DNA of 64,000 nt from NCBI GenBank assembly GCA_965215365.1, contig CBDCDS010000003.1, forward strand, positions 2,568,992-2,632,991. The letters are read 5' to 3'. Positions 10,297-38,022 of this stretch are shown piece by piece (within the stretch, counting starts at the first letter, position 1; every line of letters begins with the position of its first letter). Both the position numbers and the translations under genes were made by a program. The stretch is from Gammaproteobacteria bacterium (GTDB taxonomy: Bacteria > Pseudomonadota > Gammaproteobacteria > Eutrophobiales > Eutrophobiaceae). The notes under the pieces were generated by a model that was not told where the DNA came from, did not search any database, and saw nothing but the letters and a program-made list of their open reading frames with translations.

Positions 10297-10318
10297 CGCG
10301 ACCCTATCGTTCTCCCTG

Positions 10319-12637
10319 ATGTCAGCAGACCGGACTCCAAGACTAGAGCGCAAGCTCATCTACTGGTCGGTGCAGGTGTTCATCATTCTGTACCTGACGG
10401 TGGCCGCCATTATCATCTACAAGGAAACCCTGGATTTCAATGCCGACACCGAATTTTATTCAGCCATTATCTCCGCGGAAGTCAGGGCTGATTTTCTGGA
10501 AAATATCCGCAAGTTCGAAAATTATGTCAAGCGCCGGGTAACGGATTTCCAGTTGTCGGCACTGGCGGCTGACCCTGCCGGAATGCTTGCCGGCTTGGCC
10601 CCGCAGGTGCCGCCGGGACTAGATTGGCTAGTCATGTCGCAAGAGACGCGCACCGACATCCGGGTGACCCGCTACCATGCCACAAGCCAGACCTTGGCAC
10701 CGGCCAGCCGCACTGAGCCGGCCGACGCAATGTTGACGCAGACGCTGCAACGCAGGTTTTTTGACGGTGGCCTGAACGACGGCTGGGGCGCGCCGCTGTT
10801 GGGGAACGATGCCAACTGGCTCTTGCCTTATGCCGTGAAACTGGACGGGTTGCGGTTGTTGATCATGCTGACGCCGCTGGAATTTTTTTTCAGCGGCACT
10901 ACGGTCTGTTATGAGCAGGATGAGTTGCAGCGGTTATTGGCGACAGACCCTGACCCGGCCGCCGCGGACAATGTGTCCACGCCGCGCCTCGCAGCCGTGC
11001 GCAGCCTCTATGCCGACTCCGCCGGCACCTCGGGAGCTTCGCTCGGGCACTGCCTTAACGTTATCGAAAAAGACGTTGTTATGGAGTTCATGCCGGCGGT
11101 GAAGTGGTATGACCTGCTGTCGCTACCGGACTTTATCAGGACTTACTACCACACCGCAGTGCCCGGTCTGGTGCTTGGTATTGAGTACGACACCGCCGAT
11201 TTGTATGACGAGCTGCGAACTTACCTGCTCTGGGTGATGGCGCTGCTGCTCTGTGTGTTTGGCCTGATTATGCTGGTTATCCGGCGGCTGGCCAGGAAAA
11301 TCCTGCGTTCGCTCATCGAGCTGCTTGCCACGGCCAGGGAAATCAGCGAAGGACACCTGGAGACGCGCCTGCCCGAGCGCCAGGATTACCTGGAGCTGGC
11401 GCAGTTCGCCCGGCTGGTCAACAACCTGATTGAACGCTTGCAAGTACAGGTGGAGCGGTTGCACCGGGAAACCATGAAATCCGCGGCGCTGGATAATGAG
11501 CTTGCCATCGCCGGCCGGATCCAGCAAGAGCTGGTGACACAATACGACCTTGAAGAGCTCAATAACCGTTTCAGTTGCGATATCGGCGCCTTCCTGGCGC
11601 CGGCCAAACAAGTCGCCGGTGACTTTTACTGTCTGGCGCCGCGCCCGGACGGTAAATTGCTGTTTGCCATCGGTGACGTCTCCGGCAAGGGCATTGCCGC
11701 AGCTATCGTTGCCCGGGACTGTGTCAATCTGCTTATGACCAACGGCAAGCGCCTGGGTCTGGCCGACCTGTTGCAGGTTACCAACACCACCTTGTACGAA
11801 CGCTTTGCCAGCCAGTCCATGTTTGCCACCTTGTATTGTTGTCTGCTCGACCCCAGGCGTGGTCTGCTGGAACACGCTGACGCCGGCCACGAAAACCCCC
11901 TGCTGTACCAAAAGCGCGACGCCGCCATTGGTCGCTTGCCCGTGGCGCGTAATATCGCACTCGGCTTTTTGCCCGATGCAATCTATGAGACCAGTGCGCA
12001 ACAGCTGGCCGCAGACCATTGCCTGTTGCTTTATTCAGATGGTCTGGACGGCGGCCTGGAACAGATACGCGCGTCACGCGGGCTGCCGCTGGGTGTTACG
12101 CTGCTCACCAACGCGGCGCTGAAAAACGTGGAGATGCAAACGCTGTTGCAGTGTGTTTACAAGCAGGCGCTGGAATTGCAGGATAACCGCGCCTATGATG
12201 ACATCACTATGGTCGGCGTGTCCATGCAGCAACGCGGTTATAAATCCTTTCAGCTGCCGCCGGGGCCGGAGGCGGCCGGCACCGCCATTGTGCGCTTGCG
12301 TGAGCTGTGCGCGACACGCGCGCTGTCCGCCGAATGCAGTAACCGGCTCTGTGTCATACTGGATGAATGGGTGAGTAACCTGGTGCGCTATGCCGAGGTT
12401 GACAGCGATATTATCGTATCCTGGCTGGTTGCGGAGACCGAGGTTGTGCTGGAAATTGTCGCACGCTGTAATAACATTCTGAACCCGCTGCAACAGCCGC
12501 AGCCGGAGGTGGAGGCGCGCTTGCAGTCCGAGGCAGTCGGTGGTTTTGGTCTGCATATCATTCGCAAGCTGGCGAGCGAACTGGTTTTTGACGTAACTGA
12601 ACGCTGGACCAGGCTGGAGGCGCGGGTCGCACCATGA
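10319..12637 (+). CDS. Membrane sensor: TM-periplasmic-TM-HAMP-SpoIIE/PP2C phosphatase-HATPase_c (RsbU-RsbW-like fusion)
   Basis: 'VAGDFY', 'IGDVSGKG', 'AGH', 'YSDGL', 'DDIT' PP2C motifs; C-terminal 'LDEWVSNLVRYA' and 'GGFGLHII' anti-sigma-kinase motifs. Confidence 0.85.
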   Translation: MSADRTPRLERKLIYWSVQVFIILYLTVAAIIIYKETLDFNADTEFYSAIISAEVRADFLENIRKFENYVKRRVTDFQLSALAADPAGMLAGLAPQVPPGLDWLVMSQETRTDIRVTRYHATSQTLAPASRTEPADAMLTQTLQRRFFDGGLNDGWGAPLLGNDANWLLPYAVKLDGLRLLIMLTPLEFFFSGTTVCYEQDELQRLLATDPDPAAADNVSTPRLAAVRSLYADSAGTSGASLGHCLNVIEKDVVMEFMPAVKWYDLLSLPDFIRTYYHTAVPGLVLGIEYDTADLYDELRTYLLWVMALLLCVFGLIMLVIRRLARKILRSLIELLATAREISEGHLETRLPERQDYLELAQFARLVNNLIERLQVQVERLHRETMKSAALDNELAIAGRIQQELVTQYDLEELNNRFSCDIGAFLAPAKQVAGDFYCLAPRPDGKLLFAIGDVSGKGIAAAIVARDCVNLLMTNGKRLGLADLLQVTNTTLYERFASQSMFATLYCCLLDPRRGLLEHADAGHENPLLYQKRDAAIGRLPVARNIALGFLPDAIYETSAQQLAADHCLLLYSDGLDGGLEQIRASRGLPLGVTLLTNAALKNVEMQTLLQCVYKQALELQDNRAYDDITMVGVSMQQRGYKSFQLPPGPEAAGTAIVRLRELCATRALSAECSNRLCVILDEWVSNLVRYAEVDSDIIVSWLVAETEVVLEIVARCNNILNPLQQPQPEVEARLQSEAVGGFGLHIIRKLASELVFDVTERWTRLEARVAP

Positions 12638-12643
12638 ACTCTC

Positions 12644-13966
12644 ATGCGTTATAACCTTGCCTACATTACCGATACGATTCAGAAAGTGACGCAGGAAGCC
12701 CGCTTGTTTCAGCTGCATGGCAAGGTCACCAAAGTCACCGGCACCTTGATCCGGGCGAGTGTGCCGAATGCGCAAATCGGCGAACTCAGCGTGTTGCACA
12801 GCCCCAATTCGAGCGTCGATGTGCCGGCGGAAGTGGTCGGGTTTGACGGACGCGAAGCCATACTCAGCCCGGTCGGCAGTATGCTGGGTGTCTCCAACGC
12901 CACGCTGGTGTCGCTGACCGGGACTGTGCAGAGTGTGCCGGTGGGTCCGCAGTTATTGGGCAAGGTACTGGACGGCCTGGGTAATCCCATCGGTGCCCCG
13001 CCCATCAAGACCAACATCTGCTACCCGGTGATGGCACCGCCGCCGGACCCGATGAGGCGCAAAATCATTGACAAGCCGGTCACCACCGGGCTGCGCGCGC
13101 TGGACAGTTGCATCACCCTGGGCGAAGGGCAGCGTATGGGTATTTTCGCCGCCGCCGGGGTGGGCAAGAGTACCTTGTTGTCAATGCTGGTGCGGCATAC
13201 CGACACCGAGGTCGTGGTGCTGGCGCTGATCGGCGAGCGCGGCCGGGAAGTGCGCGAGTTTATTGAACATGACATCGGCACCGAAGGGTTGCAACGTTCG
13301 GTGCTGGTCGTCGCCACTTCGGATAAAAATTCCTTAGAACGCCTGAAGGCTGCCTACGTGGCCACGGCCATTGCCGAATATTTCCGCGATCAGGGTAAGC
13401 GCGTGCTGCTGCTGATGGATTCCGTGACCCGTTTTGCCCGCGCCCAGCGCGAGATCGGACTGGCCATCGGTGAGCCGCCCACCCGGCGTGGTTTTCCGCC
13501 GTCGGTGTTCAGCGAGTTGCCGAAACTGCTGGAGCGGGCCGGTAATTCCGACAAAGGCTCCATCACTGCGCTTTATACGGTGCTGGTGGAAGGCGATGAC
13601 ATGACCGAGCCCGTCGCCGATGAGACCCGCTCGATTCTCGATGGTCACATCATCCTGTCCCGGCAACTGGCTGAATCCGGCCATTACCCCGCCATCGACG
13701 TCACCGCCAGTGTCAGTCGCGTGATGCCGGCTATCACCGACCCGGAACACCAGCGTTTGAACCTGCGCATGCGCGAATTGTTGACCAAACGCAAGGAAGT
13801 GGACCTGCTGGTTAAGGTGGGCGAGTATAAGTCCGGGGCGGATAAACTGGCGGATGAAGCCATCGCCAAAAACGATCAGCTGGTTAAGTTTCTGCGCCAG
13901 CAGCGCGATGACGTGGCGCCTATGGACGCGGCGCTGGAGCGCTTGCGCGCCATTATTGACGGTTGA
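12644..13966 (+). CDS. sctN: T3SS ATPase (YscN family)
   Basis: Walker A 'AAAGVGKST', 'LIGERGREV', '[10 protein letters not shown]', 'GHYPAIDV'. Confidence 0.96.
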
Positions 13967-14447
13967 TGCTGCCGTGGTGCTGGAACAGATTCTAGGCATT
14001 AAACAACGCCGTGCAGACGCGACCGTCAGGACCGAACTGCAATCCAGGCTGGAGCTGGAGCAGGCCGCCGGCGCGCTGCGCGCCGAGCAGCAACGCAAGC
14101 AGGAGTACCAGGACTGGTCGGTCGGCGAGCGCCGGCGTCTGTACACGGAGTTGCAGGAGCACGGCGCCGTGACGTACAACGAGCTGATGCAGTGGAACGC
14201 GCAAGTGGCCGACATCAAACAGGGACTGCTGGATATTGAGGCCGGTATCATGCGGCTGGAGCAGGAGCGTCAGCAAAAAATGGACGCGCACCAGACGGCG
14301 CTGACGGCCAGACACGAGGCCCGCCGGCAGGTACTGAAATTTACCGAGCTGGTGGACGCGCAACGGTTCGACGCCCTGCTCGCGCGGCAGGCCCGCGAAG
14401 AAAAGGAACTGGAAGATTTTCGACGCCCTGAGTCTCATAGCTATTGA
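13956..14447 (+). CDS. sctO: T3SS stalk protein (YscO-like coiled coil); last codons derive from an IS end
   Basis: Coiled-coil ORF directly after sctN ending '...EEKELEDF'; probable TTG start at 13956. Confidence 0.75.
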
Positions 14448-14456
14448 ACCTGGACA
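14428..14456 (+). mobile_element. Solo right-end remnant of the IS481-family element
   Basis: ctgagtctcatagctattgaacctggaca is 27/29 identical to the IS right end ctgagtctcatatgtattgaacctggaca (53520-53548). Confidence 0.85.
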
Positions 14457-14461
14457 CACTG

Positions 14462-14490
14462 TTGACAACCACTCGGATTTGTTGTACTAT
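14462..14490 (+). promoter_or_regulatory. sigma70-type promoter of sterol operon
   Basis: TTGACA (14462-14467), 17 nt, TACTAT (14485-14490), 45 nt before the GTG at 14536. Confidence 0.75.
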
Positions 14491-14535
14491 CGCCTCGGTC
14501 TCAATTAACAAAACAGTCAGAAGCGAACTCCTAAC

Positions 14536-15636
14536 GTGCCCACCGAAACATCAACCGCCTCAGCTGCGCCGCCGGTTTTCCTCACCGGCGCGGCCGGTCA
14601 TGTCGGCGCCAACCTGTTGCGACGCTTGCTTGATGATGGCGTGCGCGTGCGGGTATTGCTGCGCCATGAGGACAATAACGAGGGCCTGGAAGGTCTTGAC
14701 GTTGAACGCGTGTACGGCGATATCCGTAATCTCGATGAGACCCGGCGCGCGCTGGAGGGTTGTCAGGGTGTTTACCACGTTGCCGCCAAAATTTCGACCA
14801 TTGAAGGCAATCTGGCGCACCGCCGGGAAATATACGAGTGCAATGTGATCGGTACCCGCAACGTGCTGCAGGCGGCACGCGAAACTGAAGCCGGCCGGGT
14901 GGTAGTAACCGGCTCGTTCAGCGCCGTGGGATACGATCTGGACAACCCGTCCGCACCCGCGCACGAAAACATGCAGTTCTACCCCATGGAGCGCACCATG
15001 CCTTACGAGCGCAGCAAGTCATTGGTGGAGCATGAGTGCTGGCGCGCCGCGGCCAGGGGCCAGGATGTGGTCGTCGCCACCTGTTGCGCAGTAGTTGGCG
15101 GCGCGGATTTCTTCCCGTCGCGCCTGGGCCGCACCTTGTGCGACTATTCCCACGGCAAACTGCGCGCGTATATCGAGGGCGGTTTCGAGTTTGTCGCAGC
15201 CAGAGACATCGTAGCAGGGCATGTGTTGTGCATGCACAAAGGACGCTCCGGAGAAAAGTATATCTTCAGCAGCGAATACAAGACCATCTCCGAGATCGTG
15301 GCCATGTTCGAAGAGGTGTCGGGCGTGCCGCAACCCGCGCGCCGGATTCCGTCGCCGGTGATGCTGGTCTTCTCAGAGGTGGCCAGCTTTTACCTGAGTC
15401 GCGCGCACCCGGACTTCCCCCAGCGCTTTACGCCCGGCGCCATCCGCCTGCTGCGTAAGCGCCTGCATGCCAATACCAGCAAGGCCCGACAGGAATTGGG
15501 CTACCAGCCCACCAGCATCCGGGATGCCATGCACGAGGCCTACGCGTTTCATTATCACCAGCGCAAGGTGATTACCAATCCCGCGGCGCGACCGCCGCGC
15601 GCCAACGGCGCGGAATCGACGCATGGGGCGCAATAG
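14536..15636 (+). CDS. NAD(P)-dependent 3-beta-HSD/decarboxylase-like SDR (SdmB-like sterol C-4 demethylation)
   Basis: 'TGAAGHVG' Rossmann motif, YxxxK 'YERSK'; adjacent to Rieske oxygenase in sterol operon. Confidence 0.75.
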   Translation: MPTETSTASAAPPVFLTGAAGHVGANLLRRLLDDGVRVRVLLRHEDNNEGLEGLDVERVYGDIRNLDETRRALEGCQGVYHVAAKISTIEGNLAHRREIYECNVIGTRNVLQAARETEAGRVVVTGSFSAVGYDLDNPSAPAHENMQFYPMERTMPYERSKSLVEHECWRAAARGQDVVVATCCAVVGGADFFPSRLGRTLCDYSHGKLRAYIEGGFEFVAARDIVAGHVLCMHKGRSGEKYIFSSEYKTISEIVAMFEEVSGVPQPARRIPSPVMLVFSEVASFYLSRAHPDFPQRFTPGAIRLLRKRLHANTSKARQELGYQPTSIRDAMHEAYAFHYHQRKVITNPAARPPRANGAESTHGAQ

Positions 15637-15678
15637 GGCGGGTGTGCCATTCATTATCAATGCGCTTGAGAGGACAAT

Positions 15679-16821
15679 ATGATAAGCTTGGAAAACACAC
15701 AAGTCACCGCTGTTGACGACTCCATGCCGGCATCGGAGGCGCCGCCTGGCTTCGCTGACGGCGGCACCCTGCGACAACAATCACGCGCGGCAGGGATGGA
15801 CCCGGATTACTGGTACGCGGTGGAAGAGGTGCGTAATGTCAAGCCGGGGCAGGTCGTGGAAGTCGTCTTCTGGAAACGTTCCATCGCTCTGTTTCGTACC
15901 GACGAAGGTTCATTTCACGCAGTTGAGAACCGCTGCATTCATCGCCAGCTGAAGCTGTCCCTAGGCAATGTGGAAGGTTGTCGGCTGGTATGCGCCTATC
16001 ATGGCTGGCAGTATGATAAAAACGGCCGTTGTGTCGAAACCACGCACAACCGCTTCGGCAAAGAGCTCCCGGAACTTGGATTGAAGACCTACCCGGTGCA
16101 GGTGCGTTATGGCCTGGTATGGTTGTTTCCGGGCGACCCGGCACAGGCGCAGCAACGCCAAATCCCGGAAATTCCTGAGCTGGAAGGGCCCGATCGCTGG
16201 GCCTGTGAGCCGCTGGTTCTCAATTTTTCGGCGCACCACTCGATGGTCATCGACAATGTCAGCGACTTTACCCACGCTTGGCTGCATCGCCGCTACAAGC
16301 CGTTTGAACAAGGCGCAGTACTCACCGAGCACGAGGTCGTCGGCGACAATGTGCACCTGTCTTACGACACCAAGGTCGGACGCGGGCGCATCTCCGGACT
16401 GTTTGTCGATCATGAGCGCCTCAATACCAACCACATGAAGCTGTGCTACCAGTACCCCTACCAGTGGTCCAACACCGATGACGAGATCAAACACTGGTTA
16501 TTCGTACTGCCGATCGACGAGCGCACCACCCGCTCTTTCTTCCTGTTTTACTTCAAGTCGCTGAAAATTCCATTGCTGCCGATACGCATCCCCCGGATTG
16601 CCATGGAGGCGGTGATAAAGATCTCAAACCGCATACTGATCGGCCCCCTGCTGGACCAGGACCGGGTGGCGGTGGAGGCCGAACAGGAAGGTTATGACAG
16701 CCACTGGCACGCCCGTTCCGTCGAGTATAACCCGGTGGTGCAATCGTTCCAGCGTGTGACCGTACGCAAGTGGCGAGAATACCTGGAGCGGACCTCGAGC
16801 AACGGCAGTGCTGATGCCTGA
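15679..16821 (+). CDS. Rieske non-heme oxygenase (SdmA-like sterol C-4 methyl oxidase)
   Basis: Rieske 'CIH...CAYH' and mononuclear Fe 'DNVSDFTHAWLH...D' motifs; operon context. Confidence 0.75.
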   Translation: MISLENTQVTAVDDSMPASEAPPGFADGGTLRQQSRAAGMDPDYWYAVEEVRNVKPGQVVEVVFWKRSIALFRTDEGSFHAVENRCIHRQLKLSLGNVEGCRLVCAYHGWQYDKNGRCVETTHNRFGKELPELGLKTYPVQVRYGLVWLFPGDPAQAQQRQIPEIPELEGPDRWACEPLVLNFSAHHSMVIDNVSDFTHAWLHRRYKPFEQGAVLTEHEVVGDNVHLSYDTKVGRGRISGLFVDHERLNTNHMKLCYQYPYQWSNTDDEIKHWLFVLPIDERTTRSFFLFYFKSLKIPLLPIRIPRIAMEAVIKISNRILIGPLLDQDRVAVEAEQEGYDSHWHARSVEYNPVVQSFQRVTVRKWREYLERTSSNGSADA

Positions 16822-17887
16822 GGCGTTCTCGACACTGTCAGGCGGCGACCTGGTGGCGGCAGCGCTGATGCTGTTGGCGTTCGTCGGCTTGTTGTTCCTA
16901 GGTTCAATACTACTGCCGGGGGCGCAGGTGGAAGGTCGCCAAAGCAATTACCAGCTGAACGGACTGGTCCTGTTCCTACTGAGCCTGCTTGTGGTCGCGA
17001 TGGCTCAGGTTTTCGGCTGGTTTTCCCTGACCATACTGCATACCCACTTTGTTGAGTTGTTCATTGTAGCCAATATCTTTGCTTTTGCCGTTTCCGGCTG
17101 GCTGTACCTGCGCGGCGCCAGCGCGGCGGACCGGCCGGCGGGGTTTTTACGTGGGTTTTTCTTTGGCCGGGAACAGGACCCGGCCTGCTTCGGGGTGGAC
17201 CTGAAACTGTTCAGCTACCGCCCTTCCCTGATCGGGCTGGCGCTGCTCAACCTGTCGTTTGCGGTCGTGCAGTATGAAACTTATGGGACGCTGACTCCGG
17301 CCATGGCGTTGTATCAGGCATTTACCTTGCTGTATATATTCAACTACTTTCAGTTTGAACACGGCATGATATACACTTGGGATATCATCAGCGAGCGGCT
17401 TGGCTGGATGCTGGTCTGGGGCGACTATGTGTTGGTGCCATTTTTCTATTGCATCGCCGGCTGGTGGCTCATCGACGCGCCGGCGGCGCTGTTGTCTCCG
17501 GCCGCTGCGGCCGGAATTGTCGCGTTGTTCCTGTTCGGATTCTGGCTGTTCCGCGGTGCCAACGAGCAAAAACATCGGTTCAAGCAGGACTCCGCTACCA
17601 AAATCTGGGGCAAGCCGGCGCAGACGCTGGACGGACGCTTGCTGGTGTCCGGTTTCTGGGGCATCGGACGGCATCTGAACTACACCGGCGAGATCTGCGT
17701 GTATCTGGCGTTTGCGCTCACTACCGGGTTCGTATCTTGGATACCGTTCCTGTTGCCGCTGTGGCTGGCCTGTCTGCTGGTGCACCGGGCCTGGCGCGAT
17801 GAACAGCGCTGCCACGCCAAGTACGGGGAGCTGTGGGGGCGCTACAAGCAGCGCGCCCGTTTTTCCATGGTGCCATTTGTGTATTAA
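16808..17887 (+). CDS. ERG4/ERG24-family sterol reductase (probable Delta14-reductase)
   Basis: Polytopic; 'WDIISERLGWMLVWGD', 'FRGANEQKHRFK', 'LLVSGFWGIGRHLNYTGE', 'RDEQRCHAKYG'. Confidence 0.9.
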   Translation: MLMPEAFSTLSGGDLVAAALMLLAFVGLLFLGSILLPGAQVEGRQSNYQLNGLVLFLLSLLVVAMAQVFGWFSLTILHTHFVELFIVANIFAFAVSGWLYLRGASAADRPAGFLRGFFFGREQDPACFGVDLKLFSYRPSLIGLALLNLSFAVVQYETYGTLTPAMALYQAFTLLYIFNYFQFEHGMIYTWDIISERLGWMLVWGDYVLVPFFYCIAGWWLIDAPAALLSPAAAAGIVALFLFGFWLFRGANEQKHRFKQDSATKIWGKPAQTLDGRLLVSGFWGIGRHLNYTGEICVYLAFALTTGFVSWIPFLLPLWLACLLVHRAWRDEQRCHAKYGELWGRYKQRARFSMVPFVY

Positions 17888-17890
17888 CCG

Positions 17891-19249
17891 ATGAGCAACG
17901 TCCCCGCCCCTCAACTGTCCGGTAGCTGGCCGTTGCTCGGTCACCTGCCAGAGTTCTACCGGGAGCCGACGGTCATGCTGAGTCGGGCCTGGGGTGAGCA
18001 TGGTGAACTGGCGCACTTTCGCTTAGGTCCGCGCGCGTTCGTCCTGTTTACAGGGCCTAAAGCGCATGACCATTACTTCCGCGCGCCCGAGGAGCAGCTC
18101 GACCCTAGGGTAGTGTACCAATTCACCGTACCCATCTTCGGGCGCGGCGTAGCCTACGATGTTGCGCCCGAGCTCATGTCCGAACAAATCGGCTTCCTGT
18201 CCCCGTTATTGCGGGAAGCGTCCATGCGCAACTATATCAACATCATGTTTGACGAGGCGCGCGCCTTCGCGTCCGCCCTCGGCACAGAGGGCATTATTGA
18301 TCTGCCGCACGCGCTCAATGAACTGACCGTCAAAATTGCCAGCCGTTGTCTGCTTGGCGAGGAGGTGCGGGCGCAGGTGGATACAGGTTTTGCCGAGACC
18401 TACCACGAGCTGCAGAGCGGCATTAATGTGCTGGGCTTCTTCTTCCCCAAGGCGCCGATAGCGGCGCACCGGCGACGCGATCGGGCGCGGCGTGAAATAG
18501 CCAACACTTTTAGCGGGATTATGGCTGCGCGCAGACGTTCCGGCGCCACGCCGGAGGATTTCATGCAAGCGCTGATGCAAGCGCGTTACAAGAGTGGGCG
18601 CGCCTTGAGTGATGAAGAGATTACCGGCATTTTGCTTACGGTGTTGTTTGCCGGCCAGCACACCAGCGCCGTGCTCGGAGCCTGGACCGGCCTAGAATTA
18701 ATGCGCGCGCCGGACTATCTGCAGCAGGTCCGGGACGAGTTGCAGGAAGTCTATACTTCGACCGGCGAGATGAGCCTTGACAGTCTGAAAAAACAGCCCA
18801 AACTGGAAAACGCGGTGCGCGAGTGCGAACGGCTGCACCCGCCGCTGATCATATTGATCCGTAAAGTGTTGCAACCTATGCACTATGCCGGTCAGAGCGT
18901 GCCGGCCGGCACGCTGGCCATGGTGTCGCCAGCCGTTTCGCACCGGTTGCCACATGTGTTTCCCAACCCGGAACGCTTTGCCCCGGAGCGCTTTGCGCCC
19001 CCGTCAAGCGAACACAAACAGCACCACTACGCCTTGATTGGCTTTGGCGGCGGCAAACATCGTTGCGTGGGGGAACATTTTGCTTATATGCAACTCAAGG
19101 CGCTTTGGAGCGTGCTGTTGGACCGCTTCGATTTCCAGCTGGAAGGCGCTTTTCCCGCCCCCAACTACCGTAGTTGGGTCACCGGGCCCGTGGAACCTTG
19201 CCGGGTACGTTACCAACGCCGCGCGCAAACAAGCGTTTTCCGTCAATGA
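17891..19249 (+). CDS. cyp51: Sterol 14-alpha-demethylase cytochrome P450 (soluble, not ferredoxin-fused)
   Basis: 'YQFTVPIFGRGVAYD', I-helix 'AGQHTS', ExxR 'ECERLHPP', heme 'FGGGKHRCVG'. Confidence 0.92.
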   Translation: MSNVPAPQLSGSWPLLGHLPEFYREPTVMLSRAWGEHGELAHFRLGPRAFVLFTGPKAHDHYFRAPEEQLDPRVVYQFTVPIFGRGVAYDVAPELMSEQIGFLSPLLREASMRNYINIMFDEARAFASALGTEGIIDLPHALNELTVKIASRCLLGEEVRAQVDTGFAETYHELQSGINVLGFFFPKAPIAAHRRRDRARREIANTFSGIMAARRRSGATPEDFMQALMQARYKSGRALSDEEITGILLTVLFAGQHTSAVLGAWTGLELMRAPDYLQQVRDELQEVYTSTGEMSLDSLKKQPKLENAVRECERLHPPLIILIRKVLQPMHYAGQSVPAGTLAMVSPAVSHRLPHVFPNPERFAPERFAPPSSEHKQHHYALIGFGGGKHRCVGEHFAYMQLKALWSVLLDRFDFQLEGAFPAPNYRSWVTGPVEPCRVRYQRRAQTSVFRQ

Positions 19250-22200
19250 GCAGCCTTGCCGCCGAACGCTACGATGTCGCCATCGTCGGCGCCGGTCCAG
19301 TAGGTAGCTTGTGCGCGCTGGCCCACGCGCAGAAGGGCGCGCGGGTGGCGTTGCTGGAAGCCAACCCCAAGGCCTCGCTGCGCTTGGCCGGAGAATGGCT
19401 GCATCCGCCGGCCGTGCGTATGCTGCGAGCAGTCGGCATAGCAATCGACGAACAGCCGCGCAGCAGTACGGGAGAGGGGTTTGCCGTGTTCCCGGAAGAC
19501 GGCTCCGAGCCGATAGTCTTGCCTTATCCGAAGGGTGAATGTGGGGTAGCCTGTGATCACACCGCGTTGGTGGCGCGCCTGCATGAGGCGGTGGAGGACG
19601 AACCCGATATCGATTTTTTACTTCATGCCAAAGTACGCGAAGTTGAAGATGGGCAACTCGCGTTCGCCCGCAATGGCACCTTGGAGACCCTGGCGGCAAC
19701 GAGTATCGTCGGCGCTGATGGACGCTCCTCGGTGGTGCGCCAATCACTGGGGTTGCCGGGAAAGCGGATCCCCTGCTCGCGCATGGTGGGGGTGGTCGTT
19801 GAGGATGCGGAGCTACCCGTAAAAGGTTACGGGCACGTTTTGCTTGGGGCGCCGGGGCCAATTCTCGCTTATCACACCGGCGCGCGCCACGTCAGAATCA
19901 TTGCTGACATTCCGCTGGACCACTGGAGCCCCAAGGACCGGGCTAACCTGCTGTCGGAATCGTATGCCGAACTGCTGCCGGAGGCGCTCAAGGCCGGATT
20001 TATAAAAGCAGTGCAGTCAGGAAAATTCCATGCCGCGGCCAATGAACTCAGACCGCGCGTCAGTTACGGCACCTGGCAGCGAACGCTAATCGGAGATGCG
20101 GCCGGTCACTACCACCCCCTGACCGCAGTGGGCATGACCCTGGGTTTTGGCGATGCCCTGATGCTCGCCAAGTGCCAGAACTTCAATGAATTCAAGCGTC
20201 AACGTTTTCGCGATATTCGCGCGCCGGAGCTGCTGGCCATGGGTATGTATGAGGTATTTGCCGATCACCGGGGCGAGGCCGTGGCGCTCAGGACCGCCAT
20301 GTACCAGAACTGGTTAAAACTGCCCATAGTGCGCGACCGCACCATGCGTTTGCTCGCCTGTGAGGATCGTTCCATAGTGAGGCTCGGCCTGGCCACCTGC
20401 GTGACGGCGCTGCGCGCGCTGACGACACAGACCCCGCACACCTTAAACCGGCTGGCCTGGCGCCGTACCGGTGACGTCATGGGCGCCTTGGCCTCGCGGG
20501 TGGTATGGTTCCTGCACGGCGTTGACATTCTGAGCAAGTTGCGGCGTAACGGCGACAACATGGAAAACAGGTTCCGTGAGGTATTGGCGCGTTCATTCCT
20601 GATTTCCGTGCCTCCCGAAAAAACCGGCGTCGAGCCAGCCGCGCCCAAGGATACAATATCTTTTGACGCGAGCCCGGCCTTGCACAAAGCCGGCGCACGC
20701 CTGCTGAGTTTACAGGGTGATGACGGCGCCTGGGAAGGGGAGATGGTATGGTGCCCCATGCTCACTGCGCAATACGTGTTATTGCAGCACCTCCTAGAGC
20801 AACCCATCGAAGCCGGCCGGCGCCGGCGGATACTGCGTTCGTTTGCGTGTTCCCGTCTGGACAACGGGCTGTGGAGTTTGCATGAACACCCACCCGCCAA
20901 CCTGTTTGTCACCACCCTGGTTTATGTTGCCGCGAGATTGCTTGGCCTTGAGCAGGATGATACGCTGCTTAAGCCGGCGCAACGTTTTCTGCAAGCAGAA
21001 GGCGTGCGCGCTATCCCCAGCTGGGGCAAGTTCTGGCTGGCGCTGCTCAACCTGTATGACTGGCGCGGGGTGAATGCCATCCTGCCGGAGTTGTGGGGAC
21101 TGCCGCGCCGACTGCCATTGCATCCTTCCAACTGGTACTGTCATACCCGGCTGATCTATATGGCCATGGCCTCGGTTTATGCGCACCGCTATCAGGCCCC
21201 CGTCACGACCACCATTGCCGCGCTGCGCGAGGAGCTGTATCCACAAGGGTATGAGCAGGTTGATTTCGTCGCCGGCCGCAACGACTTGCGGGCCGGTGAC
21301 CTGTTTGCCCGCCCCGGCGTCTGGTTACGCGCCGGCTACGCCTTGACCCGTCTGTACGAGCGCTACCATAACAAGCGCTTGCGCAACCAATGCCTGGAGG
21401 CGCTGCGCGGGCAGATATCCTGGGAATTACAGAGTAGCAGCCATACCAGCATCTCACCAGTGAGCGGTTTTCTCAACATCCTGGCCTTGTGGTTGCGCGA
21501 TCCGGACGATGCCGACTGCCGTCAGGCGCTGGCAAAGCTGGACGACTGGTTCTGGGAAGATGAAGAGCACGGCGCGCGGGTGACCGGTGCCCGCAGCAGC
21601 TCCTGGGATACCGGCTTCGCCCTGCAAGCGCTAGCCACGGCGCCGGATGTTGCAGGCGCGCCCAAAGCCATGCGCAAAGGCGCCGAGGCCCTGCGCAACC
21701 AGCAGATCCAGGTCAGTTTTGAGGGCTATAAGGAGGCCTACCGTAATGACCCCCAAGGCGGCTGGTGCTTCCCCGGAGGCTGGCATGGTTGGCCGGTGAG
21801 CGACTGCACAGCAGAGGCGGCGCTGGGGATAATGGCGGTGCAGGGCGCTGCTACCAACCCGGAAATGCTGGCCGCTGCCGCACGCTTTATGTTGCGCAGC
21901 CAGAATCGCGACGGTGGCTTTGGCAGCTACGAGGCACAGCGTTCCCGTTTTGATCTGGAATGGCTGAATCCGGCGGAGATGTTTGGCGAGTCCATGACTG
22001 AGCACTCCTACGTGGAGTGTACCGCCTCGTGCATGGCCGCGCTGGCCGCGTGCCGGGAGCACGCGCCGCAAAGCCTGCCTGAAGCAGCGCCGGACGCCAT
22101 GTCCCGGGCCGAGTCGTGGCTGCGTAATACGCAGTCCAGCGACGGTTCCTGGCGTGGCGTCTGGGGCGTACAGTTCATCTATGGCACCTTGTTCGGCATC

Positions 22201-22641
22201 CGCGGGCTGATTGCCGCCGGGGCGCGCCCGGGCGACCCGGCGTTGCGTCTGGCCTGCCGCTGGCTGCTGGAACGTCAACGGGAGGACGGCGGCTGGGGCG
22301 AAAGTCTGCATGGTTGCCTGAGCGGCGAGTACGTTCCACATGAGGAAAGCCAGATTATCCAGAGCGCCTGGGCGCTGATTGCACTGCTTGAAGCGGGCGA
22401 ATCAAACTGGCCCATGATTGTGCGCGGCATCCGTTATCTGGCCGCCACTCAAAATGAGGACGGAAGCTGGCCCAGGCAGGACATGGCTGGCGTGTTTTTT
22501 CGTACCGCAATGTTGGATTACGTACTGTATCGGCAGTACTTTCCTCTGCACGCGCTGGGTTTGTACGAACGGCGGCGGCGGGCGCGGGCGGAGCTGGCGC
22601 AGTCGCTCAACCCATTACCAAAACCTGATGGTGTTACCTGA
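19246..22641 (+). CDS. Squalene epoxidase-oxidosqualene cyclase fusion protein
   Basis: N-terminal FAD monooxygenase ('IVGAGPVG', 'GEWLHPP', 'GADG', 'IGDAAGHYHPLTAVGMT'); C-terminal OSC with 'VSDCTAE', 'WYCHTR', QW repeats, 'WGVQFIYGT'; no stop between; ATG 19246 overlaps cyp51 TGA. Confidence 0.92.
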   Translation: MSSLAAERYDVAIVGAGPVGSLCALAHAQKGARVALLEANPKASLRLAGEWLHPPAVRMLRAVGIAIDEQPRSSTGEGFAVFPEDGSEPIVLPYPKGECGVACDHTALVARLHEAVEDEPDIDFLLHAKVREVEDGQLAFARNGTLETLAATSIVGADGRSSVVRQSLGLPGKRIPCSRMVGVVVEDAELPVKGYGHVLLGAPGPILAYHTGARHVRIIADIPLDHWSPKDRANLLSESYAELLPEALKAGFIKAVQSGKFHAAANELRPRVSYGTWQRTLIGDAAGHYHPLTAVGMTLGFGDALMLAKCQNFNEFKRQRFRDIRAPELLAMGMYEVFADHRGEAVALRTAMYQNWLKLPIVRDRTMRLLACEDRSIVRLGLATCVTALRALTTQTPHTLNRLAWRRTGDVMGALASRVVWFLHGVDILSKLRRNGDNMENRFREVLARSFLISVPPEKTGVEPAAPKDTISFDASPALHKAGARLLSLQGDDGAWEGEMVWCPMLTAQYVLLQHLLEQPIEAGRRRRILRSFACSRLDNGLWSLHEHPPANLFVTTLVYVAARLLGLEQDDTLLKPAQRFLQAEGVRAIPSWGKFWLALLNLYDWRGVNAILPELWGLPRRLPLHPSNWYCHTRLIYMAMASVYAHRYQAPVTTTIAALREELYPQGYEQVDFVAGRNDLRAGDLFARPGVWLRAGYALTRLYERYHNKRLRNQCLEALRGQISWELQSSSHTSISPVSGFLNILALWLRDPDDADCRQALAKLDDWFWEDEEHGARVTGARSSSWDTGFALQALATAPDVAGAPKAMRKGAEALRNQQIQVSFEGYKEAYRNDPQGGWCFPGGWHGWPVSDCTAEAALGIMAVQGAATNPEMLAAAARFMLRSQNRDGGFGSYEAQRSRFDLEWLNPAEMFGESMTEHSYVECTASCMAALAACREHAPQSLPEAAPDAMSRAESWLRNTQSSDGSWRGVWGVQFIYGTLFGIRGLIAAGARPGDPALRLACRWLLERQREDGGWGESLHGCLSGEYVPHEESQIIQSAWALIALLEAGESNWPMIVRGIRYLAATQNEDGSWPRQDMAGVFFRTAMLDYVLYRQYFPLHALGLYERRRRARAELAQSLNPLPKPDGVT

Positions 22642-23675
22642 TGACACAGACACGCGAAAAAAGCAAAAAACCTGGTTTTCTTGGGGATCTGGCTTCGCAT
22701 GAAATCAAGTCGGTGGTCAATGAATACCGTGAGTTACATGATGCCGACCTGACGCATAGAAAGGAAAGCTATCAGAAACTCGTCAACCACTACTATGATC
22801 TGGCCACCGATTTCTACGAGTTCGGGTGGGGTCAGTCTTTCCACTTTGCCCCCGGGCGACGCGGCGAGAGCTTCAAAGATGCGTTGCTCAGACATGAGCT
22901 GTTCCTGGGCGGGAAGCTGGAGTTAAAGTCAGGCATGCAAGTCCTGGACGCAGGCTGCGGAGTGGGCGGGCCAATGCGCAATCTGGCCCGCCATACCGGT
23001 GCCAGTATTACCGGGATAAACAATAACGCCTACCAGATTGAGCGCGCGCGCAAGCACACCCGCGAAGTCAGCTCACTGTGCCGCCTCATTCATGGTAATT
23101 ACATGCAGATCCCGGAGACTGACAACCATTTCGATGCCGCCTACGAGATAGAAGCCATGCCGCACGCACCGGACCGGACTGCAGCGTACCGTGAGGTCTT
23201 GCGCGTGCTGCGTCCCGGCGGCTGCTTCGCCGGCTATGGCTGGTGTCTCACCGAGCATTTCGATCCGCAAAATGCCGATCACCTGCGCATCAAGAAGGAT
23301 ATTGAGGTAGGCAATGGAATGCCGGACACTCCCACCACAGCGGAGGTGGATGCAGCGTTGCGCGCCGCCGGGTTCGAGCTGCTGGAGGGCCGTGACCTTG
23401 CCTCCGAAGCAGACCCGGAAATGCCCTGGTACCGCCCTTTGCAGGGTGACTTTTTCAGTCTTGCGAGCCTGCCACGCACGCCAACCGGGCGCGCGCTCAC
23501 AAATCTGACTCTGAGGGTAGGAGAGTGGCTGCGACTGGTGCCGAGGGGCGCCCGAGACACCAGCACGATACTGAATCAAGGCGCTGATGCTTTGGTCGCA
23601 GGCGGCAAGGCTGATATATTTACGCCCATGTATTTCTATCTGGTACGCAAGCCAAACGCAGAAAAATCTGCATGA
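22641..23675 (+). CDS. Sterol C-24 methyltransferase (ERG6/SMT family)
   Basis: 'YYDLATDFYEFGWGQSFHF' (region I), 'LDAGCGVGGP' (SAM), 'IEVGNG', 'FTPMY'. Confidence 0.92.
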   Translation: MTQTREKSKKPGFLGDLASHEIKSVVNEYRELHDADLTHRKESYQKLVNHYYDLATDFYEFGWGQSFHFAPGRRGESFKDALLRHELFLGGKLELKSGMQVLDAGCGVGGPMRNLARHTGASITGINNNAYQIERARKHTREVSSLCRLIHGNYMQIPETDNHFDAAYEIEAMPHAPDRTAAYREVLRVLRPGGCFAGYGWCLTEHFDPQNADHLRIKKDIEVGNGMPDTPTTAEVDAALRAAGFELLEGRDLASEADPEMPWYRPLQGDFFSLASLPRTPTGRALTNLTLRVGEWLRLVPRGARDTSTILNQGADALVAGGKADIFTPMYFYLVRKPNAEKSA

Positions 23676-24235
23676 AATACGTATTTGACCCTGAAGTCCT
23701 GCGCGAGGTTGCGCAAGCCCACCTAGAGCTGCCGCTGGAGCAGATGATGCTGGCAATTACTGAGGATCTTGCCGAGCGTTATCCAGGCCGGATCCAGCTC
23801 GAGCGTGAATGGGTCTTCAACAACGCTGGCGGCGTCATGGGGCAGTTCACTATCCTGTACGCTTCGTTATCGGAGTACCTGATCTTCTTCGGCACGCCCA
23901 TCGGTAGCGGCGGGCATACCGGGCGCTATCATTTTGCCGAGGATTACGCATTCGTCTTAGATGGTGAGTTCTGGTATTTTAATCAGGGCGATACTCAAAG
24001 ACAGGAGTTCCGTAAAGGCGATTTCGTGCATCTGCCGCAAGGCGCGGCCATGGGTTTTTGTATGGTGGATCATGCCTGGATACTGGAATATGTACGCGGC
24101 CCGGTAGTTACCATGCTCCCGTTCGGACTCGCCGATACCTTATTCAGTACGCTTGACTACCGCACTTTGTTTCGTACCTTCCGCCTCTACGGTGGACATG
24201 TATTGCGTTCGCTCAGGAAGCCGCCTGGGCGGTAA
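23672..24235 (+). CDS. ERG2/sigma-1 receptor family C-8 sterol isomerase
   Basis: 'WVFNNAGGVMG', 'YASLSEYLIFFGTPIGSGGHTGRY', 'LPFGLADTLFSTLD'. Confidence 0.92.
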   Translation: MKYVFDPEVLREVAQAHLELPLEQMMLAITEDLAERYPGRIQLEREWVFNNAGGVMGQFTILYASLSEYLIFFGTPIGSGGHTGRYHFAEDYAFVLDGEFWYFNQGDTQRQEFRKGDFVHLPQGAAMGFCMVDHAWILEYVRGPVVTMLPFGLADTLFSTLDYRTLFRTFRLYGGHVLRSLRKPPGR

Positions 24236-25701
24236 TGCCACCGGTTCAAGATACCTGCCTTGCGGCGCGTAATTCCTGTGCAAGCAGGAATAGTTTGATT
24301 GTCGCTGTTGCGCTCTTGTTCGTGAGCGCGGCTGCCAGCGCGACCGGGTTGCCGCAGCCTGTCAATTTCGTCATCAACGGTTACAAAATTCCATCCGACA
24401 GCTACAGCCTGTATGTGCGCGACGTAGCAGCGCAGGAAGCGATACTGGCTGTCAACGCGGATACTGCGTTCAACCCCGCGTCCGTGATTAAAATCATCCC
24501 TACCCTGGCGGCGTTGGAGTTATTGGGCCCGGCCTATCAATGGAAAACGGAAGTCTATACCCTGGGCCATATCAATGACGGGGTGTTAGCGGGCGACCTG
24601 TTGCTCAAGGGCTATGGTGACCCGCACCTGGTGATAGAGGAGTTACGCAAGCTCCTGGAAGAACTGCGGCGGCGCGGCCTCAGAGAAATTAGCGGCGACC
24701 TGTTGATTGACTCGTCCTGGTTCGATGTTCCGGCAGCGGACCCGGGCGCCTTCGACAACAGGCCGTTCCACAGCTATAACGTGCTGCCGCATGCCTTGCT
24801 GGTGAATTTCAAGGCAGTGCACTTCCACTTCTATCCGTCCGCAAACGGTAAGGATGTGCAGATTCATGCCGAACCGGAGCTGGCCGGACTGAGCATCGAC
24901 AACCGCCTGCGCCTGCGCCAGCGCAGTTGTGGCGGTTTTCAGCGCGGCATCACTGTGACCGTGCCGGATGGCGATAGAGCCGCTACGGTGATCTTTTCCG
25001 GGCGCTTCCCGAACCGCTGCCGGCATTACATCCTGACCCGCGCGCTAATGACCCCTGAGACCTACGCCTATGGCGCATTCAAACTGATCTGGCAGCAACT
25101 GGGGGGAACTATCACCGGGCAAGTACGTAGCGCGCTGGCGCCGACACAGCAAGAACCCTATCTGGTACATCATTCCAAATCCCTGTCAGACATCATCAGG
25201 TACATCAACAAGTTCAGCAATAACGTGATGACCCGGCAGCTGCTGCTGACCCTGGGTGCGGAGTTACAGGAAGCGCCGGGCACGGTGGAGAAAGGTGTAC
25301 AGGTCATCAACGACTACCTTGCCGCACTGGGGCTGGAGGTGCACAGCCTGCATATCGACAACGGCGCCGGGCTGTCGCGGCAGGTACGCGTCTCGGCGCA
25401 ACTGCTGGCAGCTGTCCTGCAGCGTGGCTGGGACATTCCCCAGGCGCCGGAGTTCATCTCCTCACTGGCCATCACCGGCGTCGATGGCACCGCCCGCCGC
25501 CGCCTCAGCAACAAGGCCGCAGCCGGTTCTGCACACATCAAGACCGGCACCATCGACGAAGTGTCCGCCATCGCCGGCTATGTCCAGGCCCAATCCGGGC
25601 GGGACTTTATAGTAGTCGGCATGCTCAACCGCAAGCTGGCGCACAAAGGCCACGGCAAGGAACTGATGAACGCGCTGGTGAGCTGGGTTTATGGGCTTTA
25701 A
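24235..25701 (+). CDS. dacB: D-Ala-D-Ala carboxypeptidase/endopeptidase PBP4
   Basis: SxxK 'PASVIK', SxN 'FSNN', 'KTGT'. Confidence 0.92.
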   Translation: MPPVQDTCLAARNSCASRNSLIVAVALLFVSAAASATGLPQPVNFVINGYKIPSDSYSLYVRDVAAQEAILAVNADTAFNPASVIKIIPTLAALELLGPAYQWKTEVYTLGHINDGVLAGDLLLKGYGDPHLVIEELRKLLEELRRRGLREISGDLLIDSSWFDVPAADPGAFDNRPFHSYNVLPHALLVNFKAVHFHFYPSANGKDVQIHAEPELAGLSIDNRLRLRQRSCGGFQRGITVTVPDGDRAATVIFSGRFPNRCRHYILTRALMTPETYAYGAFKLIWQQLGGTITGQVRSALAPTQQEPYLVHHSKSLSDIIRYINKFSNNVMTRQLLLTLGAELQEAPGTVEKGVQVINDYLAALGLEVHSLHIDNGAGLSRQVRVSAQLLAAVLQRGWDIPQAPEFISSLAITGVDGTARRRLSNKAAAGSAHIKTGTIDEVSAIAGYVQAQSGRDFIVVGMLNRKLAHKGHGKELMNALVSWVYGL

Positions 25702-26426
25702 TGAACTGGCAAACTGCGCCCGAGCGTCTTGACCTCTCCCCATACCACGTTGATGTCTGGTTGACCTCAACGGAGCTGGAAGAGGAACGGGTGTACAGCT
25801 ATGCAAAGTCCCTGACAGAAACAGAACTTGGCCGCGCACGCAAGTTTAAGTTGGCAGCCAAATATCGGGAATACGTGATCACGCGCGGGCTGCTCAGGGA
25901 GCTGCTGTACAAGGTGGCCGGCCTGGATCTGGCTGGCGTTGACTTCAGCTACGGCGCGCATGGCAAACCCGGTCTGGCGGGGCGCGCCGATATTGTCTTT
26001 AATGTGTCCCACTCCCACGGCCTGGCGCTGGTGGCGCTGGCCACAGGCGGCAGGCTGGGGGTGGATCTGGAACAGGTCAAACCGGGGGTGGCCTGGCGGG
26101 AACTGGCCGAACGCTATTTTTCCGCGGCGGAAGGCCGCGCCCTGCAAGCCCGAGCACCCAGCGAGCACCCACGCGCCGGCTGCGCCTGCTGGACCCGCAA
26201 GGAGGCGTTCATCAAGGCACTAGGTGCCGGGCTCTCCCATGGCTTAACACAGTTCGATGTCAGTGTGGACCCGGACGCAGCCGAGGTAGGCCTGACTCTG
26301 CGCATAACCGGCGAGGACGCCAACGACTGGCAGTTGCGAAACCTGCCGATGCCACCCCGCTACCATGCCGCTCTGGCCCTGGACCGGCCGGCCTGCAAAC
26401 CCAGGCTATGGCGCGCGAACCACTAA
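25701..26426 (+). CDS. Sfp-type 4'-phosphopantetheinyl transferase
   Basis: 'GKP', 'FNVSHS', 'LGVDLE', 'WTRKEAFIKALGAGL'. Confidence 0.9.
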   Translation: MNWQTAPERLDLSPYHVDVWLTSTELEEERVYSYAKSLTETELGRARKFKLAAKYREYVITRGLLRELLYKVAGLDLAGVDFSYGAHGKPGLAGRADIVFNVSHSHGLALVALATGGRLGVDLEQVKPGVAWRELAERYFSAAEGRALQARAPSEHPRAGCACWTRKEAFIKALGAGLSHGLTQFDVSVDPDAAEVGLTLRITGEDANDWQLRNLPMPPRYHAALALDRPACKPRLWRANH

Positions 26427-36613: not shown

Positions 36614-36630
36614 CCCCGAAAGCATTTTCC

Positions 36631-38012: not shown

Positions 38013-38022
38013 GCCCAAGGCA

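Follow-up and report, generated by a model that had tools for sequence, protein, structure and literature searches.

A seven-gene operon for a predicted C-24-alkylated Delta7 sterol in a gammaproteobacterial genome: a further copy of a known bacterial cluster type

The 64-kb stretch of gammaproteobacterial contig CBDCDS010000003.1 analysed here (the window) carries at 14536-24235, on the forward strand, an operon that with a probability of about 0.75 is a working sterol biosynthesis operon of a cluster type that circulates in many phyla of uncultured bacteria, largely associated with sponges. The window forms the very end of a contig of 2.63 Mb, and the genome to which it belongs (G000; other genomes of its genus also bear G-numbers) comprises 2.73 Mb in three contigs and is 97.6% complete. 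According to the open reading frame (ORF) list and the Pfam matches, seven intact, overlapping or abutting ORFs fill the segment, in agreement with an earlier note, made from the same DNA, that had listed seven co-oriented genes: a short-chain dehydrogenase/reductase (SDR), a Rieske oxygenase, an ERG24-like reductase, a CYP51, a fused squalene epoxidase-oxidosqualene cyclase (hereafter the fusion protein), a sterol C-24 methyltransferase (SMT) and an ERG2-like protein. Catalytic motifs were found in all seven proteins. In gene order, the first and third junctions are gaps of 42 and 3 nt, the second, fifth and sixth are overlaps of 14, 1 and 4 nt, and at the fourth the genes overlap as ATGA. 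A tblastn search of the genome with the seven operon proteins detected no close paralogue. The identities of the genes, their motifs, their conservation, the selection acting on them and the contiguity of the stretch are matters of observation.

The ratio of nonsynonymous to synonymous substitution rates (dN/dS) lies between 0.07 and 0.20 for all seven genes in comparisons with the congeners G006, G005 and G008, which indicates that the operon genes are under purifying selection. It is very unlikely that the reduced 2.7-Mb genome keeps the operon in a silent or decaying state: among the 23 genomes of the genus only G031, which is 77% complete, is smaller, and the neighbourhood upstream of the operon is rearranged, but all seven frames are open with their motifs intact, the start-stop overlaps are kept along with the low dN/dS, and near-identical copies occur in the sequencing runs of several studies.

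The fusion protein is encoded at 19246-22641 on the forward strand. The longest ORF begins with a TTG at 19174, but the ATG at 19246 is the probable gene start, because it forms the ATGA overlap with the stop codon of CYP51 and because the frame upstream of it contains stop codons in G008 and G002. One 1155-aa frame holds the Pfam domains SE (3.9e-23) and FAD_binding_3 at residues 33-335 together with SQHop_cyclase_N (2e-51) and SQHop_cyclase_C (3e-55) at residues 504-1132, and the protein matches the NCBIfam model osq_cycl (TIGR03463) with 718 bits. Comparison of the cyclase half with human lanosterol synthase (PDB code: 1w6k; 418 bits) showed the presence of the DCTAE motif and of a Val at the equivalent of human position 453, a residue that, as described in PMC4919349, tracked lanosterol rather than cycloartenol production in the bacteria tested. 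The cyclase is predicted to be of the lanosterol type, and we propose that the N-terminal flavoprotein half would epoxidise squalene and the C-terminal half would cyclise the product to lanosterol. The dN/dS of the fusion gene is 0.13-0.18; the fusion is full-length in six congeners and in all 80 fetched loci from other species genomes, and in a further congener, G011, it is divided between the ends of two contigs.

Squalene would come from a squalene synthase (squal_synth the best family, 133 bits) encoded in the hopanoid gene cluster on another contig (C1), where its gene adjoins hpnL and hpnG homologues, and a squalene-hopene cyclase is encoded on C3; since both are present, squalene is likely made and shared with hopanoid synthesis. 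The window itself holds, at 37804-38847 on the forward strand and adjoining a clear ubiG (36595-37350), a gene for a distant protein of the squalene/phytoene synthase family (SQS_PSY 38 bits; HpnD 64 bits against a cut-off of 279), which is probably not the squalene source.

CYP51, a sterol 14-alpha-demethylase of 452 aa without a fused ferredoxin, is encoded at 17891-19249 (forward strand; Pfam p450 7.5e-62). The 56 best of the 60 distinct PDB sequences listed are all CYP51 enzymes or sterol 14-demethylases, with 7jj1 and 6mcw on top (367 bits), and the first sequence outside CYP51 reaches only 131 bits. The protein contains AGQHTS at residue 254 (helix I) and FGGGKHRCVG at 385 (the haem Cys loop); the (A/G)GxHT(S/T) helix-I motif and the haem Cys loop are what we take to be the signature motifs of CYP51. 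A Cyp51 homologue has published activity, as described in PMC13277303, and the enzyme of the operon would remove the 14-alpha methyl group. Saturation of the resulting Delta14 bond is predicted for the product of the preceding gene (16808-17887, forward strand), a membrane protein of 359 aa with four hydrophobic blocks that we assign as an ERG24-type sterol C-14 reductase on the basis of its Pfam family (ERG4_ERG24, 3.9e-73), of which it is the sole member in the genome, and of its closest solved relative, the Delta(14)-sterol reductase 4quv (227 bits).

The first two genes are candidates for the demethylation at C-4. The SDR gene (14536-15636, forward strand, GTG start) encodes an NAD(P)-dependent protein of 366 aa, a candidate C-4 decarboxylase/3-ketoreductase, that belongs to the extended SDRs (Pfam Epimerase 3.5e-31, 3Beta_HSD 1.1e-18) and carries the Gly-rich loop GAAGHVG at residue 18 and YERSK (YxxxK) at 157; its dN/dS is 0.09-0.10. 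Its best NCBIfam model is SdmB (NF052578, 291 bits, model positions 4-326 of 328), with HpnA (229 bits) as runner-up. The Rieske oxygenase gene (15679-16821, forward strand) encodes a candidate C-4 methyl oxidase of 380 aa with a Rieske domain (5.6e-22), a VanA_C catalytic domain, the CxH...CxxH ligands of the 2Fe-2S cluster at 86-108 and the DFTHAWLH motif of the non-haem iron at 196; here the best model is SdmA (NF052579, 403 bits, model positions 5-347 of 351) and the next family reaches 35 bits. Both models were built on the Methylococcus enzymes, of which, judged by these scores, the pair are homologues, not equivalogs. SdmAB homologues have published activity (PMC10202945), and we propose that the pair would remove one or both C-4 methyl groups. 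KshA-type 3-ketosteroid 9-alpha-hydroxylases are also Rieske oxygenases and appear among the PDB matches, so one could imagine the SDR and the Rieske protein hydroxylating the ring in sterol or steroid degradation, as the earlier note had considered. This is extremely improbable, as the KshA structures score about 44 bits against 403 bits for the full-length SdmA model, the two genes hold a fixed place immediately before ERG24-CYP51-cyclase in 62 of 80 loci, and no partner genes of degradation lie nearby.

The SMT (ERG6-type, 344 aa) is encoded at 22641-23675 on the forward strand, with a dN/dS of 0.10-0.14. It combines Sterol_MT_C (1.2e-21) with methyltransferase domains and contains Region I (YEFGWGQSFHF) and the S-adenosylmethionine site, Region II (LDAGCGVGGP). 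More than 3600 homologues are found in a set of 5.8 billion proteins, among them proteins named after Nitrospira, Deltaproteobacteria and Defluviicoccus metagenome-assembled genomes (MAGs), and the closest that is not the protein itself has 73% identity. Residues were given yeast numbers by offsets between conserved anchors (22 up to Q154, 24 for D189-G268, 23 at W286 and 30 in the C-terminal domain), without aligning the yeast sequence. By this mapping the protein has, at matching spacing, all 25 of the residues that Brown & Welander 2025 (bioRxiv 10.64898/2025.12.19.695621) describe as conserved among functional SMTs, and it has Tyr and Phe at positions 81 and 83, where according to the same work a Phe at either position favours repeated methylation. 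The same source describes Gly249 as necessary, not sufficient, for propylation to 24-isopropyl, and reports that the mutants G249N, A, S and T retain C29 and lose C30 products. In the SMT of the window the probable position 249, in a column anchored between G217 and G268, is an Asn within G-N-G, not a Gly; the mapping is uncertain by +/-1 because there is a Gly on both sides. Of 62 aligned SMTs, 29 have N in this column, 21 have D, six S and two G, and the yeast SMT is described in that source as having D. Given the Asn, C30 (24-isopropyl) products are not expected, so the C30 end of the C28-C30 range mentioned in the earlier note is not borne out by an SMT that lacks Gly249. The SMT would add one methyl group at C-24 (possibly two, not three), and 24-methyl, perhaps 24-ethyl, but not 24-isopropyl products are expected. 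As a side observation, the two SMTs with Gly in the 249 column (L030:13803 and L076:14000) are third copies in three-SMT arrays of Binatia and alphaproteobacterial MAGs.

The last gene (23672-24235, forward strand) encodes a candidate sterol C-8 isomerase of the ERG2/sigma-1-receptor type (187 aa), which matches ERG2_Sigma1R (PF04622) with 1.2e-62 and 211 bits over model positions 21-206 of 210 and aligns with Sigma-1 receptor structures (124 bits) from chain residue 35. This enzyme would convert the Delta8 to the Delta7 bond.

The genome gives no match to FA_hydroxylase (the ERG3/ERG25 type) and only the single ERG4/ERG24 match, hence neither DHCR7 nor a second ERG4-family reductase. The earlier statement that the window lacks a C-5 desaturase, a Delta7-reductase and a ferredoxin holds, for the first two throughout the genome and for the Fer2 family as far as the window goes: the eight Fer2 matches all lie outside it, and small 2Fe-2S ferredoxin genes are located elsewhere in the genome. 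Because the genome lacks a C-5 desaturase, a Delta7 reductase and any further ERG4-family enzyme, a Delta7 24-alkylated sterol is expected as the end product. The pathway should end at a Delta7 (or Delta8), Delta24(28) sterol; more specifically, the product should be a 24-methylene or 24-methyl (perhaps 24-ethylidene) Delta7 sterol, 4-desmethyl or 4-alpha-methyl, similar to episterol or 24-methylenelophenol. A course through Delta8 and then Delta7 appears more likely than one through Delta8(14), because the operon has a reductase of the canonical ERG24 type (8,14-Bsr was not searched for in the genome). According to the description in PMC8237579, SMT and ERG2 would turn zymosterol or 4-methylzymosterol into episterol or 24-methylenelophenol, the same outcome for a bacterial set of these two genes as the earlier note had derived from the operon. 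Its gene assignments and order of reactions likewise fit the families, the motifs, the selection, the squalene synthase encoded elsewhere and the lack of ERG3, ERG25 and DHCR7.

Several points weigh against reading the operon as a working pathway. The enzymatic steps, their order, the numbers of methyl groups at C-4 and C-24 and the expression of the operon are all predictions from the genes. Cyclase positions 381 and 449 are Ala and His and do not match the eukaryotic lanosterol pattern; as described in PMC4919349, these positions are not conserved among the bacterial cyclases compared. The scores of 403 bits for SdmA and 291 bits for SdmB both lie under the NCBIfam equivalog cut-off of 600, and the outcome of SdmAB homologues differs between organisms, the Methylococcus pair removing one methyl group, the Calothrix pair both and the Enhygromyxa pair alone none (PMC10202945), which makes the C-4 state of the product unpredictable. 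The operon and its surroundings encode no redox partner, as judged by a search confined to the Fer2 family of ferredoxins. The sequence of the SMT is no guarantee of its activity, since four of 11 SMTs found inactive in vitro, as reported in bioRxiv 10.64898/2025.12.19.695621, retained all conserved residues. The ERG2-type protein is devoid of the N-terminal membrane anchor region and has no hydrophobic 19-mer, and no assay of a bacterial ERG2 was found in the cited literature.

A scan with the fusion protein of one genome per prokaryote species yielded 438 confirmed relatives, and the loci of the best 80 of these 438 were examined, gene matches being counted at a query coverage of at least 50%. 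In these 80 the fusion protein is essentially full length and 60-81% identical. Their titles name Gammaproteobacteria, Nitrospirales, Binatia, Alphaproteobacteria, Acidimicrobiales, Chloroflexi/Dehalococcoidia, Rhodothermales, Thermodesulfobacteriota, Bryobacterales and named sponge-symbiont candidates, with identities of 60-69% (best segment) in loci of Nitrospirales, Binatia, Alphaproteobacteria, Acidimicrobiales, Chloroflexi and Rhodothermales. The five-gene core is found in the same order and on one strand in 62 of the 80; the SDR and Rieske genes are inverted downstream in four, the fusion gene stands alone in five, and the remaining nine are cut by a contig end or miss one gene. At least one SMT gene is present in 54 loci, more commonly on the opposite strand (24 opposite versus 12 same in the simplest architectures), and an ERG2 gene in five. 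The full co-directional seven-gene form occurs in two loci, both of the window's genus and consisting of the same DNA as the fetched congeners.

Homologous clusters have been described since 2020. By its published description (Mohanty et al. 2020, PMC7074536), the msb locus, which comes from a gammaproteobacterium living in symbiosis with the sponge Melophlus sarasinorum, holds in msbA-F the counterparts of the first six operon genes in the same order: an NAD(P) oxidoreductase, a Rieske oxygenase, a membrane sterol reductase, a lanosterol 14-demethylase, a bifunctional protein that joins squalene epoxidase and cyclase and has the lanosterol-type valine, and an S-adenosylmethionine-dependent sterol methyltransferase. 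The squalene synthase of the msb genome is described on a separate scaffold, as that of the window's genome is likewise encoded elsewhere; the operon differs from msb as described in its additional seventh, translationally coupled ERG2-type gene. The msb authors consider the locus sarasinoside-related and read msbA, msbB and msbF, homologues of the SDR, Rieske and methyltransferase genes, in this sense (PMC7074536), and the msb locus is reported as the best nr match of the clusters termed CSGs (PMC9531527). By analogy the operon might make a norlanostane saponin aglycone of the sarasinoside kind, with the SDR/Rieske pair and the methyltransferase tailoring it otherwise, by C-23 oxidation and O-methylation. 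We consider this unlikely: no glycosyltransferase gene lies in or beside the operon, whose neighbours are PBP4 and phosphopantetheinyl transferase (PPTase) genes (the genome was not searched for glycosyltransferase clusters); the cluster occurs in hundreds of species of many phyla, far more widely than the saponins of one sponge; the methyltransferase has Sterol_MT_C and Region I, and such bacterial SMTs are described as C-methylating C-24 in vitro (PMC10070321); and the matches of the Rieske and SDR proteins to SdmA and SdmB are full-length.

The reading as a sterol biosynthesis operon agrees with other published clusters. The CSGs of Ircinia sponges (Kelly et al. 2022, PMC9531527) are described as ERG24-CYP51-LSS cores of 5910 +/- 74 bp in 115 of 537 MAGs of 11 classes, with 'DFR' and a hypothetical protein encoded before them and SMT or FDFT1 at the flank, containing ERG2 in several cases, under purifying selection and horizontally spread over 10 phyla including Gammaproteobacteria. 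The ERG24-CYP51-fusion core of the window measures 5834 bp (16808-22641) on one strand, close to the CSG mean, and 'DFR' with the hypothetical protein correspond to the SDR and Rieske genes at 14536-16821, upstream on the same strand; the CSG SMT is described on the opposite strand (PMC9531527), whereas the SMT and ERG2 genes of the window are co-directional and overlapping. Bacterial SMTs from clusters with sdmA and sdmB alkylate C-24 in vitro according to Brown et al. 2023 (PMC10070321), and the SMT of the window, of the bacterial clade, is clustered as described there with sdmA, sdmB and cyclase homologues. Methylococcus capsulatus shares, by the description in PMC13277303, the lanosterol route, the CYP51 (among the closest solved relatives of that of the window) and C-4 demethylation of the SdmA/SdmB type. 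Its CYP51 is fused to a ferredoxin, unlike that of the window; the fusion of epoxidase and cyclase in the window is a further difference; it relies on the NTF2-type 8,14-Bsr where the window has an ERG24-type reductase (8,14-Bsr, as noted, was not searched for in this genome); and its pathway as described lacks the SMT and ERG2 that the window carries (all PMC13277303). The novelty implied by the earlier note is thus not upheld: the type is in print (PMC7074536, PMC9531527 and PMC10070321) and common in public species genomes, and the operon is a further copy of a cluster type described since 2020 and widespread in public genomes. What is particular here is the co-directional, coupled seven-gene form with ERG2, found in its own genus only among the loci examined, and a divergent SMT at a place where the nearest relative has none. 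Beyond the cited works we found no papers that deal with the fusion protein or report a bacterial isolate making alkylated sterols de novo, most subscription journals lying outside the coverage.

Within the genus the fused cyclase is present in eight of the 19 genomes searched, G000 included, and the order SDR-Rieske-ERG24-CYP51-fusion is found in all six fetched congeners. The genes that follow the fusion gene vary: SMT and ERG2 in G005 and G008, ERG2 alone in G006 and G002, and in G014 and G016 an SMT at 47-49% identity without ERG2. Closest to G000 is G006, whose fusion protein shares 83% identity and whose genome (one contig, rated 98% complete) has no Sterol_MT_C match at all. Over the genus, SMT is present in 14 and ERG2 in nine of 23 genomes. 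The synonymous divergence (dS) of the SMT gene is 2.5 versus G005 and 1.6 versus G008, as against 0.6-1.4 for the flanking genes (0.6-0.9 versus G005), and in the tree the SMT of G000 pairs with two short metagenome proteins (72-73% identity; SH-aLRT 99), not with the SMTs of G005 and G008. A replacement of the SMT by horizontal transfer remains a suggestion, because grouping the SMTs of G000, G005 and G008 in one clade is not rejected by the approximately unbiased (AU) test (p = 0.24), and we do not adopt it. The slot is thus empty in G006 and G002, occupied by deeply diverged SMTs in G000 versus G005/G008 and by another SMT type in G014 and G016. That the space between cyclase and ERG2 is a swappable SMT cassette, in which the rare-lineage SMT of G000 has a new regiochemistry or substrate, for example the C-26 methylation still sought in sponge biomarker research, is highly improbable.

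Sterol_MT_C matches are also present in G003, G013, G015 and G018, the last also with ERG2, in genomes without an epoxidase-cyclase match (only a hopene-cyclase match of about 28%); these may tailor sterols without a cyclase, perhaps foreign ones. Such genomes, together with the Chlamydiae SMT described in a MAG without other sterol genes (PMC10070321), speak for the notion that in the window, too, SMT, ERG2 and SdmAB mainly tailor host-derived sterols and that synthesis de novo is minor or absent. For G000 this is quite unlikely, as the genes are translationally coupled to an intact fused epoxidase-cyclase with a dN/dS of 0.13-0.18 and a squalene synthase is present; synthesis from squalene remains the preferred reading.

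Upstream of the operon lie genes of a type III secretion system (T3SS), with a CesT-like chaperone gene, a secretin, sctU (reverse strand), sctD, a SpoIIE/HATPase regulator, sctN and sctO; a gene for a DNA methylase fused to an HNH nuclease (4822-6111, forward strand) sits among them, in a low-GC (0.52) stretch between the secretin gene and sctU. A functional link between T3SS and sterol operon, suggested previously, was rejected. No match to the T3SS ATPase, SctO or SpoIIE was found in the 16.5-20 kb around the operon in the six congeners, and thus the adjacency is not conserved; sctN is 95% identical in G006, about 1 Mb from its operon, and 92% identical in G008, on another contig, and finds only matches of about 30% in G005, G002 and G014. 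In G005, G006 and G008 the operon is preceded by genes whose counterparts in G000 lie at C3:2330394-2338291, about 245 kb away. Downstream, the PBP4 and PPTase genes are kept after ERG2 in G005 and G006. From these comparisons the operon appears to be old in the subclade, and a rearrangement ending just before the promoter candidate brought the T3SS genes beside it, so that the adjacency does not amount to a conserved link. Provisioning or mimicry of a host by sterols is pure speculation.

A chimeric contig, the other doubt raised in the earlier note, is excluded at the operon by contigs that bridge the gene junctions. The stretch is present at at least half of the sampled words in 10 sequencing runs (12 rows overall, six studies, none of the listed rows being of RNA; X-numbers denote runs), and the bridging contigs come from three studies other than the probable source. 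A 4724-nt contig of X5 matches 10289-15012 with 0 differences and runs across the sctO/SDR junction; an 8650-nt contig of X6 and X8 covers 17816-26303 with 99 differences in 8488 (about 1.2%); and X10 has contigs across 19306-22927 and 23001-26303. Upstream, 10000-14458 shows 245 differences in 4459 in X6 (about 5.5%) and 10000-13431 shows 177 in 3432 in X8 (about 5.2%), and at 15267-17844 both runs show three differences in 2578 (about 0.1%). The X6 and X8 contigs break at 14458/14459, which is the synteny break with the congeners and the place of the promoter candidate; this step in divergence could reflect a recent exchange of the operon between strains.

The sigma-70-like promoter candidate, TTGACA-17-TACTAT at 14462-14490 on the forward strand, lies in the 88 nt that separate sctO from the SDR gene. 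The sequence claimed as the promoter is there, is the best promoter-like match of the region (10/12) and sits in the only real intergenic gap, whereas promoter-like sites as a class do not exceed chance (eight found versus 6.0 +/- 2.7 in shuffles). A terminator scan of the region gave no more sites than shuffles, and an Rfam search of the window gave no match. The co-oriented run extends beyond 24235 through the PBP4-type and PPTase genes to an ATP-grasp/Alpha-E pair. The PBP4-type D-Ala-D-Ala carboxypeptidase and the HetI-like PPTase (24235-26426, forward strand; Pfam) overlap the operon end, the former starting at 24235 with a 1-nt overlap with the ERG2-type gene; they are conserved neighbours with no known part in sterol synthesis. 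At 24233-24237 the ERG2 stop and the PBP4 ATG overlap (TAATG) in G000, and by tblastn coordinates the gap is roughly 50-170 nt in G005 and G006; the overlap may be a compaction in the smaller genome.

The operon opens no new question: its cluster type, how widely the type has spread and what it likely makes have all been published. Side-chain alkylated steranes are taken as fossils of eukaryotes (and sponges), and intact bacterial operons of this kind strengthen the published caution. The near-complete, almost closed small genome offers a clean template from which the whole pathway could be rebuilt in a heterologous host, and the close relatives, some with a diverged SMT and some with none, provide a natural comparison of the same core with and without C-24 alkylation.

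Elsewhere in the window, an insertion sequence-type transposase gene (HTH_32 and rve_3; 35491-36537, reverse strand) lies about 11 kb downstream of the operon. A 3223-aa ORF (41961-51632, reverse strand, 67-71% GC) encodes fibronectin-III, Calx-beta and other repeat domains and is followed by a gene for a 641-aa protein (40034-41959, reverse strand) with nine RTX nonapeptide stretches; by their domains both are putative eukaryote-like or adhesin-type giant proteins.

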